In this document: one piece after another, positions 18,001-33,000 of the stretch
Layout of the letters: every line of letters begins with the position of its first letter
How positions within the stretch are numbered: the stretch's first letter is position 1
Assembly (NCBI GenBank): GCA_963699155.1
Contig: OY969414.1
Span: 1,093,327 to 1,157,326 of the forward strand
Direction of reading: 5' to 3'
DNA from: an uncultured Chlamydiales bacterium
GTDB taxonomy: Bacteria > Chlamydiota > Chlamydiia > Chlamydiales > JAAKFR01
Length of the DNA stretch: 64,000 nt
Position numbers: made by a program

Positions 18001-21000
18001 CTTTCCATTCAATCTTTGAGAGTCTGGTCTCCCTCAAGTATAGCTCTCCGATGATTCTTCTAATTATATTTCTCACTTATAAAACTGCTTTTTTAAGCCA
18101 ACTTCATCCCATTTATAAGTCCCAAGAAGTGGTCCCCTCTCACTTACGCTATCATAACGCCTATATGTGGCTAATTTATTCACCTCTTTTTGTAGAGAAG
18201 TTTAATATAAATCTGAATGAATTCAATGGGGATCGCTTTTCTTTTGAGAAGGGGGAGGAAGATTTTCTTAAGAAAAATCCATCAGCGACTTCTGGGGATT
18301 TTATATGTCGATATACTCAAGCTTATAAGGGGGGAGTGCATGATAAAATCATGCGGGAGGCCTTTTTCAACTTTATAATCAACCATCCTTTGATCTTTTT
18401 GGATGCGCAGTGGCATAAGATCGTTTGCGACGCTAATCTGATTATCGATTTTATTAAAAAGCATATGAAGATTTTGATTTGGCTGTTTTGCCTATGTTTT
18501 ACATTTATTGCTTTGATGCAAAACTATGATAATGAAATCAAATGGAAAAGAATATTTTTTGTATTTGCACTTATGATTTTTTGTTCTTCTTTGCCCTATA
18601 TATATGCCAATCCTACCCCCTTATATGGAGATCACATCATTCTCTCTACGACCTGTTTGGTAGTGGCATTAGCTTTATTCGGTGCTCGATGCCTCAATTT
18701 TTCAATAAAAGTTGTTAGTGGGATGGTAGAGCGGTATCGTCGCGTCTAAAATATCTACCTCATTACTCAAATGGGGGATTCAAATCAGAAGGAGAGTTGT
18801 CAACTCATCAAGCCGCTTCCATTTATTACTTTATAAGTTAGCAAGCCCAATTTTTTGCCTGACGACGCTTGTACTTTTGCTATCCATTTACATCTACGGT
18901 AGGCAGATGCGTTTTCATGAAGTGATTCCGGAAGCTATTCTTGATCACAGTTGGTCAATTGCTACAGCCATTTCAGATTGCTACTATCATTTGAACCAAG
19001 GCTATCTTTTCTATAAGGATGTCCATGAGACGCTAGAAAAAAATGGGATGACCTATAAACCCGATTATCTGGATCAGCTCTCTATCAGCTATCCGGATAA
19101 CTTAAAAAACAAAGAAGCTTTGAATAATTCACTAAGTAAAGCAACGCAATTGAAAATGAAGAAAAGAAAATGCGGGCTATCGCTAGATGAAACCATTCCA
19201 ATGCCTTTCTCAGACCTTGGTTTGGTCGATTATTATAAAATGGCGTTTCATTTATTTGGTGTTAATATCGCAGCTCCATATAATTTTTACTTTGTGATTT
19301 TATTTGGAACGTTGTTCTTATTTTTGCTTAACTTTTACCGTTCCCCAACTTTTCTTTTGGTGCCAATCATTTATTTGACCGCCTTAATTTGTTTTATGCC
19401 ATTTTTGTCGACAAAGATCATAGGCGGCTCTCTTTTTAATTTTAGAATTCTTCCAATACTCGCTTTCATCCCCATTTCTCATGTATTACTTATGTTGGGA
19501 CGATCTAACCATTCTAAACAAGAAATTGTTTGTTTGAGCTTTCAATCCATTATCATTAGTTTTCTTATCACAGTTCGAAGTTCCATTTTTTGGACCATTG
19601 TTGCCTGCTTTGTAGTCCTATTTGTATCATCCTACAGATTCATTAAATACTGCGGTTTTAAAGAATGGTTCGATCAAAACCGATGCTTCATTTTCGTCTT
19701 CTTTTTCTTTTTGATGGTTAATTTATTTATTTCTTCTTATAAAGTTATTGCATTTTTCGCCGGCTTTGGATTGCCTTCCATTAAACATTATTCATTGACA
19801 CTACACTCTGTTCTCTCTTCTTTTGTTATTTTCACAGTGGGTCTAGCATGCAATTTCTGGATTGTCAAAAAAACAGAAAAAAAGAAAATATCATTTTCAA
19901 ACTTTTTAATCTTGTTATCATTAACACTAATTCTCTTAGCGATTCAACTTCTTTACACCAAAAGTTTATTATTATCCACTGAAGAAAGGCTCTTTTTTTA
20001 TTTTGCAAATTGGTTGCTGACAATTACTGTCCTTTATTTGATCTATCTTATTTTTGTTCAATTAGCAGCACTCTTGAATCTTTCTTTTCGATCAATATAT
20101 GAAAGTATAGTTTCACACAAATTTAGCTCTGCAATGATTCTTCTAATCATATTCCTTGTTTATAAAACTGCTTTTTTAAGCCAGCTTCATCCCATCTATA
20201 AATCCTTGGAAGTGGCACCCCATCACTTAAGGTATCATAATGCCTATATGGCATTGACATATTCACCTATTTTTAGGAGAGAGTTTAACATTAATCTTGA
20301 GGAATTTCAGGGTGATCGGTTCTCATTTGCTAAAGGAGAAGAAGATTTTCTTAAGAAAAACCCATCAGCAACTTCGTTAGACTTTGTATCTCGATTTACT
20401 GGAGCCTATAAAGGTGGTCTTCATGATCAACTTATGCGTTCAGCTTTTTTTAAATTTGTAATGGATCATCCATTAATTTTTTTGGATGCCGAGTGGCATA
20501 AGATAAAATATAATATCACTTTGATCTTTAATTTTCTTAAGGAACATTTTAGAGTTTTGATTTGGCCATTTTGTCTATGTTTCTCTTTTTTTACATTGAT
20601 GCAGCGATTCTTTAATGAATTGGAATTGAAAAGAATATTGATTGTTTTTGTCCTCACGATTTCCTGTTCATTAATTCCATATCTCTATGCCTATCCTGAC
20701 CCTTTTTTTGGTGACCATATTATTATTTTTGTTAGTGGCTTTGTGTTCTTTTTGGCGTCATTCAGTGCCCAATGTCTTAATTTTGCACTAAAAAAAGTGG
20801 TTAGGGATGGTAGAGCGCTATCGAGCCGCATTTAAATTCACAGGCATCGCCATTCTCATCCCATTTTGGAGAGGATAGAGCGATATACCAGGCAATATGA
20901 TGCTCTCGCATTCGCTGAAAGGCTTCTTCAAGCCTGGTTGCATGGATGATGGATTGTCTTGTTAGCGAGTCTCTTTCGTTGATGATAGATAATCGCTTAG

Positions 21001-30000: not shown

Positions 30001-33000
30001 AGTCTACCACGGCACGAATTCTACTCAATGTCACTACAGATAAATGCTATGAAAACAGAGAGTGGGAATGGGCATATCGGGAAAATGATGCCTTGGGTGG
30101 AAAAGAGCCCTATAGTAGCAGTAAAGCCTGTTCCGAACTGATCACGGCAGCCTACCGTCATTCCTATCTCTCACTGCAAAATAAGGGGATCGCCACCGCG
30201 AGAGCCGGCAATATTATTGGCGGTGGTGACTGGTCAAAAGATCGCCTGATTCCCGATTTTATGCGTGCTCTTATCTCTAAGAAACCATTGGATATCCGCT
30301 ACCCAGGCGCTACACGCCCTTGGCAATATGTTTTAGAGCCTGTTTTTGGCTACCTGAAGTTGTGTGAAAAGCTTTGGGAAGAGCCTGATCAGCATAGTGA
30401 GGGGTGGAATTTTGGCCCTAGGGAAGAGGATGTGCAGACGGTAGAGTCAATTATCCGCACCCTTTGTGAATATTATCCTGTGGAAATTAATTGGTCTTCA
30501 AACAAGCAATTTTACGAGAGCAAACTCCTGAAATTAGATGTTTCCAAAGCCAAAAAATATCTATCTTGGAGCCCTACCATCCCCCTTGAAGAGGCGCTAG
30601 AAAGGACAATGAACTGGTATCTAGCCTACGTCAATCAGGAAGACATGTTTGAATATACTCAGCAGGAGATTCTAGCCCACCTGCAAACCCTTGAACCTAT
30701 AATGTCCCTGGAAATTTGATTGATTTTTTAGCTTTCTTTTCTTAATGTCCTTGGAAAACTACAGACCTAGATAAGGAAAAAATTATGAAGCTGTTACGTG
30801 CGATTAAAAGAACGGCAAAAAATTCGGATGCTCATACTAAAATTTTGGAAGAGATCAGAGAGGAGATTGTCCGACTCAAAGAAGAAACCAATTCGCACCT
30901 ACAAAACAATCTCGCTTTAAATCAACAGATCGCTTCAATGCAGCGCGCCCATCTCGAGCTTCTTTCACATTTTGCATCGAAAGAGGGAAAACCATTCGAT
31001 TTTACCCAATTTCAACGACCCATTGAGGCAGATAAAGAGGCAAGCTCGAGCAAAGATGCCATTGCACGGATGCCTCTTCTTATCGCTGAAAAGACCTATA
31101 ACACCGGGCATCCTGATTATAATGCCAATTTAGTCCGCAATTTTCCTACACGCATCTTGAATGCCGAACGAGGCTCTAACAACAATGTTTACAAGGCACT
31201 TCTTGCCAGAGCCCAAAAGAAAAAAGGGATCACAGAGATTCCCGACAATACCTGGCAGCCCATTCTGGATGCCATGCTCAAAGAGGTCTCGGAAATTCCT
31301 CATGCAGAACAAGTTTTTGAACGAAAGAGTTATATCGAAAATTATATTGCCGAGCTTAGCCATCGCTACAAAGCCCACTATCATGCAGGCTGGGTCAATC
31401 TTGAAGATGCCCTTTTCCTCTACTGGCTTATCCGCACGCTCAAACCCAAGACAATTGTTCAAACTGGTGTCTGCAACGGTCTATCGAGTGCTTTCATGAT
31501 GTTAGCTCTCGTAAAAAACGGCCCGGAAGGACAACTCTACGTGATCGATCTTCCTGCTATTTTCGACCCCAAAGATCCCGCTTGGACGATCAAAGACAAG
31601 GTTTATGGTGTCCTAATACCTGAGGGGCAATCTTCAGGATGGATGGTCCCTGATGCCTACCGCAGCCGCTTCCATGTCCAGTGTGGAGATGCCAAACTCC
31701 TTCTTCCTCCCCTAGTCGACAAACTCGATAACATCGATCTCTTCTACCACGACTCGGACCACACCTATCACCATATGATGTTCGAATTCCGTGAAGCTAA
31801 GCGCAAACTTTCTCCAGGGGGCCTCATCGTCGGTGACGACATCTCCTGGAATGAATCCGTCTGGGATTTTGCCGATCAGTATCAGGTCCCTTCCTATAAC
31901 TACAAGGGTGCTGTAGGGGTCGCTTTCTTTTAATAATCCTTTTTCAAATCAACGTGGGTTCTGAGTATTTCGTCAGTTGGATCGATCATATCGAATTGTT
32001 GATTCATAAATAGGTGTCCTGCTTTGACATCTTTAAAAAAGATAGGGGAATGTGAACGCACGAGCTGATGTCGTGAATGGTTTGAAATGGCTTCTAATTT
32101 AGCACGATAATCTGTCCATTGCTGCTCTGTACGATAATGTTGCTGAATGGGCAGCTGATCACTGGTTGAATGAGCGCCCTTCTCTGCAATAACAATCGTG
32201 GCCATTTCATAAGGTGAAGTAAAACTCGAAATATGTCTTTTCGGATCCTTGAGCCAATCTCTATTGATGCAAAAGGCATTGACCATATTTTTTGATGCAT
32301 CGGTCACAAGTTGAATCTCTTTATAATTTAGTTTTGAGGGGATTCCAAATGAAGAAATTAACTCTAAAACTTCACTGGGGGAATTGTAGATGGTTTGACG
32401 ACCAATAAGTAAGACATCTCCATCAATTGCTCGATGAAGATGTTCCCTATAGATGGATTCAATGACTTCTCTAATAAGACCCAATTTTCTTTCTCATTGT
32501 CATGTGGTTCGTTAGGGCTGAAGATTAACTCTTTTGCTCAGCAGGCTTCAATTGTTCCTGTTTAAAGTTTTCTGCTTTGATTCCCATCAAGCTCCTTCGC
32601 AGCCACTTTTGTACAGGTCGCTCAAAGAGGATGTAGCTCAGACGACTGAGCACTAAGATGCAAGCCATGGCAATCGCAAAAAGTAGCCAGGGATTCAGTC
32701 CGAGATAATAAAAATCTCTTGGATACAACAAAAAGAAGGCATGGAGGAGATAGATCGAGTAGCTTGCTTCTCCGAGCTTAACTAATATGGGATGGGAAAT
32801 AGATCGGCTGAGGAAGTTTTTTGAATAGCGGGTTAAACACAAAATGAGGAGTGTTATGAAAGGAACAATTAGAAGTGAACCTGAACGTCCGATCAAGGTA
32901 TAATAAGGAGCCAATCTGATATAAAATAAATAGTGGCCCAAAATCAGGCTAGCCAAACTGATGAATGTGATGGTTCCGCCGTATTTGCTTTCAAAAGAGC

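Follow-up and report, generated by a model that had tools for sequence, protein, structure and literature searches.

What does a transketolase (TK) whose two halves are encoded by separate genes do among genes for a cytidine diphosphate (CDP)-linked deoxysugar and a membrane-bound sugar transfer system? This question is raised by a gene cassette at positions 20801–31933 of a 64,000-nucleotide stretch of DNA from an uncultured Chlamydiales bacterium (contig OY969414.1, positions 1,093,327 to 1,157,326; "the window" below always means this whole stretch). Eight genes on the minus strand encode a sulfotransferase, a kinase, an extended short-chain dehydrogenase/reductase (SDR), the two TK subunits, a GtrA-family protein, a family 2 glycosyltransferase (GT2), and a 653-residue polytopic protein. 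On the plus strand are rfbF, rfbG, and a methyltransferase gene. An initial annotation, made from the sequence alone, had listed these eleven genes and described the minus-strand operon as diverging from the plus-strand rfbF-rfbG-methyltransferase genes. Our list of open reading frames (ORFs) agrees with this arrangement and matches the gene coordinates, and Pfam and NCBIfam match the domains. On balance, we lean toward reading the cassette as an envelope-glycosylation module, in which donor-sugar synthesis, with TK-catalyzed branching at C4, would be coupled to a three-component transfer system.

The split transketolase and its active site

The TK-like enzyme, dependent on thiamine diphosphate (ThDP), is encoded as an N-terminal (PP-domain) subunit (TK-N; 25122–25958, minus strand; PF00456 Transketolase_N, 125 bits) and a C-terminal subunit comprising the Pyr and C domains (TK-C; 24056–24982, minus strand; PF02779 Transket_pyr and PF02780 Transketolase_C). 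In Pfam and NCBIfam, both subunits matched TK, DXS, and E1 families only. The NCBIfam model NF004559 scored 281.8 bits on the N half and 137.8 bits on the C half, with a whole-enzyme cut-off of 488. The best PDB match for both subunits was the split TK of Carboxydothermus hydrogenoformans (TK-N, 248 bits to 6YAK; TK-C, 153 bits to 6YAJ), which shares with the window enzyme the two-gene architecture and the same cofactor-binding residues.

To compare active sites, the concatenated split pair was aligned with the canonical TK of the window and with 72 split TKs from other genomes (residue numbers follow E. coli TktA). The split TK retains His26, His66, His100, His261, Glu411, His473, the metal-binding Asn, and Arg358. 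Three other residues are substituted: His461 by Gly, Asp469 by Gln, and Arg520 by Gly. In characterized TKs, these three residues bind the substrate phosphate and the C2 hydroxyl of the acceptor. All three are kept in the active, structurally solved 6YAJ and in nine other split TKs. The acceptor and phosphate site of 6YAJ carries a His/Asp/His motif plus Arg, whereas that of the window enzyme carries Gly/Gln/His and Gly. Two motifs of TK-N are also changed, from SGHPG to SSHIGS and from GHPE to GHLSH. Reading the C2 donor from the active-site residues was considered. This was rejected, because the catalytic histidines are common to TK and DXS.

The canonical TK is a 677-residue protein encoded 22 kb from the split TK (47104–49137, minus strand; Transketolase_N, 488 bits). 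It has every substrate-binding residue intact and is 69% identical to the TK from a metagenome-assembled genome labeled "Chlamydiales bacterium". This protein is the housekeeping enzyme. A neighbor-joining tree of split TKs resolved three clades: "HDR" (the true split TKs), "N-L-x", and "G-x-x". The window enzyme was placed in the G-x-x clade, apart from the HDR clade, and most members of the subclade to which it belongs are RfbF-linked. The canonical TK in the window and the replacement of the three substrate-binding residues support, at the level of sequence, the view that the split pair is not an ordinary pentose-phosphate enzyme.

Recurrence of the cassette and origin of the keto sugar

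RfbF (28846–29646, plus strand; PF00483) is a glucose-1-phosphate cytidylyltransferase that forms CDP-D-glucose, and RfbG (29640–30719, plus strand) is a CDP-glucose 4,6-dehydratase that converts it to CDP-4-keto-6-deoxy-D-glucose. Both clear the equivalog cut-offs of their NCBIfam models (RfbF, TIGR02623, 414.8 bits vs. 300.25; RfbG, TIGR02622, 450.7 bits vs. 278.45), in agreement with the functions assigned to them at the outset.

The surroundings of related TK pairs were then compared in a scan of one genome per species. The scan returned 80 loci, whose ORFs were searched with the window proteins (loci from other genomes are denoted by L numbers). RfbF was encoded no more than 10 kb from the TK pair in 15 of the 80 species-representative loci, and in most of these RfbG was present as well. 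The bacteria with RfbF-linked TKs were Omnitrophota, Rhodanobacteraceae, Pirellulales, Clostridia, Neomarinimicrobiota, Myxococcota, Smithellaceae, Gluconacetobacter, Elusimicrobiota, Nanopelagicaceae, and Gemmataceae, and the archaea were Altiarchaeota and Woesearchaeota. The closest relatives of TK-N (65–78% identity) were all located in the same type of locus. Such recurrence of the gene set in unrelated phyla is more than chance would produce. A complete aligned TK pair was available for 67 loci. Of these, 49 belong to the G clade, and 12 of the 49 encode RfbF no more than 10 kb away; none of the 18 loci with other split TKs does. Within the G clade, RfbF accompanied 8 of 9 enzymes with Gln, Ala, or His at residue 469, compared to 4 of 40 otherwise (Fisher p = 9e-6, phylogeny-uncorrected).

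The order of the genes is also partly preserved. In L006 it is RfbF-RfbG-SDR-TKN-TKC-GtrA-GT2, and in L009 it is RfbG-SulfoT-Kin-SDR-TKN-TKC-GtrA-GT2-GT87 (SulfoT, sulfotransferase; Kin, kinase), with GtrA in the same position in both. L008 reads GT2-RfbF-(extended SDR)-UGDH-SulfoT-Kin-SDR-TKN-TKC-YfhO, and L094 reads (extended SDR)-UGDH-SulfoT-Kin-SDR-TKN-TKC-GT2, where UGDH stands for an enzyme resembling uridine diphosphate (UDP)-glucose dehydrogenase. The L009 rfbG gene immediately precedes the sulfotransferase gene and has the same orientation, so that a single unit seems to have been inverted locally to give the divergent arrangement of the window. The terminal polytopic protein varies by locus (GT87, YfhO, the 653-residue family, and others), which points to a constant donor cassette plugged into variable GT-C transferases. 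Together, these loci bear out the functional coupling that had been claimed for the window, as they show a portable module in which the genes for CDP-glucose and the SDR are conserved along with those for the split TK and the GtrB-type GT2.

The SDR gene next to the TK pair (25921–26814, minus strand; PF01370, 135 bits) has orthologues adjoining the TK pair in L006, L008, L009, L011, L023, L031, L053, L057, L060, L093, and L094. The protein contains the motifs TGASGFVGSH and YGVAK and the Ser/Tyr/Lys triad, and it has Arg instead of Asp after the second beta strand. Arg at this position hints that the enzyme is a reductase using NADPH, and not an epimerase that binds NAD+ tightly. The sequence thus suggests that the SDR is such a reductase, probably partnering the TK-like enzyme. 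A sister G-L-R clade (L013–L030, L052, L056, L091, and others), with Leu at residue 469 and Arg520 kept, occurs in glycan loci of Acidobacteriota, Planctomycetota, and Verrucomicrobiota. Here, a DegT-type aminotransferase adjoins the TK in place of the SDR, and in L091 genes for a PglF-like dehydratase and a Bac_transf protein are nearby. This gene content suggests that the G-L-R loci may make branched amino sugars. The neighbor of the TK is in both cases a carbonyl-processing enzyme, which fits a carbonyl-bearing branch made by the TK.

The keto sugar itself can be traced to three upstream routes. The first uses RfbG alone to give CDP-4-keto-6-deoxy-glucose and is found in the window, L006, L009, L011, L012, and others. 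The second combines RfbG with RfbH, which gives CDP-4-keto-3,6-dideoxy-glucose, the exact substrate of YerE (PMC12247030). RfbH is encoded within ~4 kb upstream of the split TK pair in eight loci (L031, L032, L037, L039, L042, L051, L060, and L066), directly adjacent to it in several, and the three RfbH proteins tested scored 689–731 bits with NF011936. In the window, no RfbH/DdhC was detected in all 64 kb by tblastn with three RfbH orthologues as queries (E > 0.5). Therefore, the earlier statement that a 3-deoxygenation gene is missing holds for the window but not as a trait of the family, and the window appears to be the 6-deoxy variant of a broader theme. In the third route (L008:3683-6987 and L094:303-2760), the UGDH-like enzyme and an extended SDR take the place of RfbG. 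The NCBIfam scores of this SDR were all below cut-off (dTDP-glucose 4,6-dehydratase, 119 bits; UDP-4-keto-pentose/UDP-xylose synthase, 93; ArnA, 75). The two enzymes probably also yield a nucleotide-4-keto sugar. If the SDR is a decarboxylase, CDP-glucuronate would be converted to CDP-4-keto-pentose, which would feed the sulfotransferase-kinase-SDR-TK block. On this reading, the C4 ketone is the common denominator of the three routes, which points to this ketone as the target of the TK.

Upstream of the SDR gene are two genes for tailoring enzymes. The first gene of the minus-strand operon encodes the sulfotransferase (27778–28704; PF13469 Sulfotransfer_3, 55 bits, cut-off 27), for which the C-terminal part of the profile alone was matched and the 5'-PSB loop is atypical. 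Among solved structures, it is most similar to the sulfotransferase domains of the polyketide synthases OLS and CurM, although the scores of 34.5 and 23.5 bits are weak. These domains sulfate a hydroxyl and thereby turn it into a leaving group. The second gene encodes a small-molecule kinase similar to APH and fructosamine kinases (26799–27797, minus strand; PF01636, 66 bits; PF03881, 47 bits), with intact catalytic motifs HGDLGNSN (HGDLxxxN) and IDWGD (DWG). Five independent loci (the window, L008, L009, L023, and L094) contain the sulfotransferase and kinase genes as a unit, and in related loci the kinase is always paired with the sulfotransferase. The pair is absent from the other loci, so it would be an optional decoration step. 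At the right edge of the low-GC glycan island described below, an adenosine 5'-phosphosulfate (APS) kinase of the CysC type is encoded (37877–38428, minus strand; PF01583, 194 bits). Its presence in the locus supports sulfation dependent on 3'-phosphoadenosine 5'-phosphosulfate (PAPS), and the enzyme is a probable accessory part of the same glycan locus that supplies PAPS. It adjoins an ORF of 256 residues (37100–37870, minus strand) with a weak Sulfotransfer_1 match (E = 0.002), possibly a second sulfotransferase of the locus. On the plus strand, the 382-residue protein downstream of RfbG (30785–31933) has a C-terminal class-I S-adenosylmethionine-dependent methyltransferase domain (PF13578 Methyltransf_24, 59 bits, residues 225–353) and an N-terminal part of ~200 residues with no assigned domain. 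It had no NCBIfam match and no useful match in PDB, and it is a probable sugar or glycan methyltransferase.

From these genes, the following synthesis of the donor sugar can be proposed. RfbF and RfbG produce CDP-4-keto-6-deoxy-D-glucose, an assignment at the equivalog level. The split TK would carboligate a C2 unit onto the C4 ketone and so generate a tertiary alcohol at C4. The C2 unit may be glycolyl, as proposed for miharamycin and amipurimycin, or acetyl, as with YerE. By analogy to YerF, the adjoining NADPH-type SDR would then reduce the carbonyl of the new branch. The kinase and the sulfotransferase may, as an optional step, phosphorylate and/or sulfate a hydroxyl of the product, with PAPS provided by the APS kinase of the locus. 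A methyl group may be added by the methyltransferase.

Alternatively, the TK pair and the SDR may act on the CDP-derived sugar in a way other than C4 branching, for example by C–C cleavage or rearrangement next to the ketone, by chain extension, or only after the sugar has been loaded onto the lipid, as DprE1/DprE2 and ArnD do with lipid-linked sugars; the remaining steps of the scheme would be unchanged. The changed acceptor-site residues specify no particular reaction, and in L093 the SDR-TK-TK-GT2 block occurs with neither RfbF nor RfbG nearby. The GT2 gene is upstream of rfbF in L008 and L011, so that the sequence of reactions cannot be taken from the order of the genes. Nevertheless, we judge such activities unlikely. 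A C4 ketone is the only trait that the three upstream routes have in common, and enzymes of the TK superfamily natively carboligate onto carbonyls. The adjoining reductase or aminotransferase suits a newly formed carbonyl, and the TK subunits have no predicted membrane segments.

The GtrA, GT2, and GT-C transfer system

If a branched CDP-sugar is made, the last three genes of the minus-strand operon would deliver it. The GT2 (22759–23688, minus strand; PF00535) is of the GtrB/ArnC/DPMS type and has a C-terminal membrane anchor. Its residues 4–302 align to residues 28–325 of its PDB homologue Synechocystis GtrB (5EKP, 159.7 bits), and ArnC was matched with 107 bits. This full-length alignment with GtrB/ArnC identifies the enzyme as a polyprenyl-phosphate glycosyltransferase. 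The GtrA-family protein (23685–24059, minus strand; PF04138, 61 bits, cut-off 26.1) is a small membrane protein and a putative flippase or partner of the polyprenyl-phosphate glycosyltransferase.

The 653-residue polytopic protein (20801–22762, minus strand) had no Pfam match even at E <= 10. Its AlphaFold2 model (pLDDT 73.8, pTM 0.78) was compared with PDB by Foldseek, and the top 17 matches were all GT-C proteins (AglB, STT3, DPY19; E from 1.5e-5 to 1e-3), followed by ArnT. The protein thus models as a GT-C enzyme and is presumed to be a periplasmic transferase. It is the founding member of a family with no Pfam model, and Pfam matches were also absent from all 11 family members tested. A profile search of 1.84 billion representatives detected 745 clusters of this family at 50% identity; E was <= 1e-30 for 409 of these, and the members are mostly full-length (650–700 residues). 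Asp151 and Asp164 are invariant in the family and are located in a 57-residue loop poor in Lys and Arg, which is probably periplasmic. By Pfam, PDB alignment, and AlphaFold2 with Foldseek, the last three genes therefore form a genuine GtrA/GtrB-like/GT-C-fold triad, as had been assumed. The likeness to phage serotype-conversion cassettes drawn at the same time stands for the architecture only: the 64-kb window gave no rRNA, tRNA, or Rfam match, and integrase or phage domains were not seen in the ORFs scanned.

In the proposed pathway, the GtrB/ArnC-type GT2 would move the finished sugar from CDP to undecaprenyl phosphate. GtrA would then aid the passage of the lipid-linked sugar across the inner membrane, in line with the known role of its family. 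Finally, on the periplasmic side, the GT-C-fold protein may attach the sugar to an acceptor in the envelope.

The nature of the donor is the point at which this scheme competes with a second alternative, in which the triad is an ordinary Gtr-like UDP-sugar system and the CDP-sugar is used by cytoplasmic Leloir glycosyltransferases, such as the GT90-like and GT92-like proteins encoded at 33853–36834. Such further glycosyltransferase genes do exist in the locus, donor specificity is not readable from the sequence, and the GtrB/ArnC homologues are named for UDP-sugar-type substrates. To our knowledge, the characterized members of the GtrB/ArnC type use UDP- or GDP-sugars. However, the distribution of the GT2 makes this alternative rather improbable. 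Orthologues scoring at least 240 bits (range 244–584) were found in 8 sampled genome loci, 7 of which have both RfbF and the TK pair; in the eighth, L040, the contig ends 1.9 kb upstream. These GT2 genes are often translationally coupled to TK-C, SDR, or rfbF. A related GT2 (182–200 bits) is located beside homologues of the 653-residue protein in L001, L002, and L005. In L001 and L002, RfbF, RfbG, and a TylC3-type C-methyltransferase are present and the TK is absent, whereas the short L005 contig has the GT2 only. The related GT2 thus accompanies RfbF, RfbG, and the 653-residue family even when there is no TK, and the position of the family beside RfbF/RfbG in L001 and L002 ties it to CDP-derived deoxysugars. 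All these GT2s outscore Synechocystis GtrB (160 bits) against the window GT2.

The weakest alternative is that the split TK is a second ordinary pentose-phosphate transketolase that sits in the glycan island by chance; Pfam and NCBIfam do label both halves transketolase and the nearest structure in PDB is that of a functional split TK, but this is very improbable with a canonical TK encoded 22 kb away, with His461, Asp469, and Arg520 replaced where true split TKs keep them, with an NCBIfam score of 282 bits that is far under the equivalog cut-off of 488, and with the gene sitting in glycan loci across phyla.

Two further observations concern the transfer genes. A Logan contig (L004, run ERR11523669), which is an independent assembly, is 99.986% identical to the window over 14.2 kb. 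The sole difference is one CT unit fewer in a short CT repeat in the GT2 gene (window positions 23380–23389, minus strand; L004:1311-2238), and this loss breaks up the GT2 gene into two ORFs of 108 and 179 residues. It could be an assembly error or could mean that the modification system as a whole is phase-variable by slipped-strand mispairing. Convergent with the gene for the 653-residue GT-C protein are two tandem plus-strand genes for polytopic paralogues that are 64% identical to each other (677 residues, 16716–18749; 652 residues, 18877–20835). These had no Pfam match at E <= 10 and shared no profile similarity with the 653-residue family (hhalign probability 0.1%). Their AlphaFold2 model, built from two sequences, was unusable (pLDDT 36). 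They could be further transferases or polymerases of lipid-linked sugars.

Overall assessment, genomic context, and related systems

Several points weigh against the C4-branching module. The steps beyond RfbG are deduced from sequence. The C2 donor is not deducible from the sequence, as the histidines shared by TK and DXS give no indication, and 4-reductase or epimerase activity would also be conceivable for the SDR. In the window, rfbF and rfbG are divergent and not part of the TK operon. L093 consists of SDR-TKN-TKC-GT2 and has no RfbF or RfbG within 9 kb, so that the link to CDP-glucose is not obligatory. The synteny statistics are uncorrected for phylogeny or horizontal transfer. The GT-C call comes with modest TM-scores of 0.33–0.40 and a model from nine sequences. 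We also know of no characterized polyprenyl-phosphate GT2 that uses a CDP-sugar.

With these points considered, we still favor the branching module as a whole, by a narrow measure. More tentatively, and somewhat short of an even chance, a detailed version can be put forward, in which split TKs with Gly461 are a large, uncharacterized family that C-branches nucleotide ketosugars and occurs in envelope-glycan loci of both bacteria and archaea. The window would then produce a CDP-6-deoxy-4-C-(dihydroxyethyl or hydroxyethyl)hexose, phosphorylated and/or sulfated. This would be the first known case of a CDP-sugar loaded by a GtrB-type enzyme on undecaprenyl phosphate, and the new GT-C family would deliver it.

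The eight minus-strand genes had been described as overlapping. Overlaps of 4–38 nt were indeed found, with the exception of the TK-N/TK-C pair, whose genes are separated by a 139-nt spacer (24983–25121, minus strand). The spacer contains a perfect 17-bp inverted repeat with arms at 25018–25034 and 25054–25070, and its RNA folds into a hairpin with a minimum free energy of -52.2 kcal/mol (z = -12.6), with no T run downstream. In related loci, the TK genes overlap and there is no spacer. A repeated element was rejected as an explanation because only one copy is present in the window. The hairpin could be an element for mRNA processing or stability, or a small palindromic mobile element. Several gene starts in our list are mechanical TTG calls; public gene calls give 268 residues for TK-N and 652 residues for the 653-residue protein. 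Promoters for both directions presumably lie in the 141-nt intergenic region between the sulfotransferase operon and rfbF (28705–28845). On the plus strand, a promoter-like site (28790–28818) matched 10 of 12 positions, and such matches are not more common than in shuffled sequence.

The cassette is located within a low-GC glycan island (~11900–38400), which has a GC content of 0.35–0.44 vs. 0.46–0.51 in the flanks. The island also encodes an MsbA/PglK-like ABC exporter (13947–15896), an Acyl_transf_3 O-acyltransferase (32525–33811), a GT90-like protein (33853–34683), a GT92/GT2_4-like protein (35959–36834), a PhyH-like dioxygenase, and a 670-residue protein of unassigned function. With the sole exception of the generic ABC exporter, these genes and the methyltransferase gene had no counterparts in the related loci.

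Elsewhere in the window, OEP and BBP7 porin genes indicate an outer membrane. The BBP7 beta-barrel porin (62392–63489, minus strand) belongs to a family typical of the PVC group (Planctomycetota-Verrucomicrobiota-Chlamydiota). At 39146–40810 (minus strand), a leucine-rich-repeat (LRR) protein is encoded that ends in an E3 ubiquitin ligase domain of the NEL (IpaH) type; the NEL-LRR architecture is typical of effectors from host-associated bacteria. Along with the 69% identity of the canonical TK, the BBP7 porin and the NEL-LRR protein are weak hints of an affiliation with Chlamydiota or another PVC lineage. At 49207–52033, the gene for a formylglycine-generating enzyme (268 bits) overlaps an opposite-strand gene for a 652-residue sulfatase (181 bits). 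An AbiEi/AbiEii toxin-antitoxin pair (7271–8676) and a Ku and LigD non-homologous end-joining pair (52836–55363) are both encoded on the plus strand.

Among known systems, the transfer part is closest to GtrA/GtrB/Gtr(type) and ArnC/ArnE-F/ArnT, with which it shares a GT2 homologous over its full length, a GtrA protein (Gtr), a terminal GT-C protein, and the order gtrA-gtrB-GT-C. The CsbB-GtcA-YfhO and PgfS systems of Gram-positives are three-component systems of the same kind. The window differs from Gtr and Arn in its donor, which is probably a CDP-linked tailored 6-deoxyhexose and not UDP-Glc or UDP-Ara4FN. It further differs in having sugar-synthesis genes in the same cassette and a GT-C protein of a family with no Pfam model. 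Unlike the classical Gtr serotype cassettes, it is not prophage-borne, as judged from the lack of a tRNA gene and of an integrase in the ORFs scanned.

The synthesis part resembles the YerE/YerF system of yersiniose A in having RfbF and RfbG upstream (with RfbH in the eight sister loci), a ThDP enzyme beside a reductase, and a location in a locus for lipopolysaccharide or another envelope glycan. YerE adds a C2 unit at C4 of CDP-3,6-dideoxy-4-keto-glucose, a reduction follows, and ErwE and MMAR_2332 are YerE-like enzymes (PMC12247030). YerE belongs to the decarboxylase/acetolactate-synthase-like superfamily, in contrast to the window enzyme, which is a split member of the transketolase superfamily. 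Since the window lacks RfbH, the acceptor would be a 6-deoxy ketosugar and not a 3,6-dideoxy ketosugar as for YerE, and the product would, unlike that of YerE, pass through a lipid carrier.

So far, hydroxyacetylation of keto sugars by the split-gene TKs of the miharamycin and amipurimycin clusters is only a proposal, and the function of these enzymes is described as "still pending" (PMC12247030). As far as the description in this review allows a comparison, they resemble the window enzyme as two-gene members of the TK superfamily for which a keto-sugar acceptor is proposed. They differ in their context: Streptomyces secondary-metabolite clusters for the sugars of nucleoside antibiotics, compared to envelope-glycan loci of many phyla for the window clade. 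According to the account in the same review, Krug et al. (2024) predicted 13 Streptomyces split TKs (PMC12247030). No ketone-accepting TK has been characterized in vitro or structurally, and these 13 Streptomyces genes are the only candidates (2025 review, PMC12247030). Our literature search returned nothing that links a transketolase to CDP-sugars, O-antigen branching, GtrA, or Gtr systems. Likewise, no characterized pathway with this gene combination turned up in the literature searched, in keeping with what the initial annotation had stated.

The locus and its relatives therefore provide dozens of candidate ketone-accepting TKs, for which CDP-4-keto-6-deoxy-glucose or its 3,6-dideoxy form is an accessible substrate. 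Thousands of genes in glycan loci that are labeled "transketolase" are probably misnamed. A new GT-C family, with about 750 clusters at 50% identity, is indicated by the 653-residue protein. If the proposed pathway is correct, it would constitute a CDP-dependent route onto undecaprenyl phosphate, and the cell surfaces of many phyla would carry branched deoxysugars, possibly with sulfate or phosphate groups, that form a new class.

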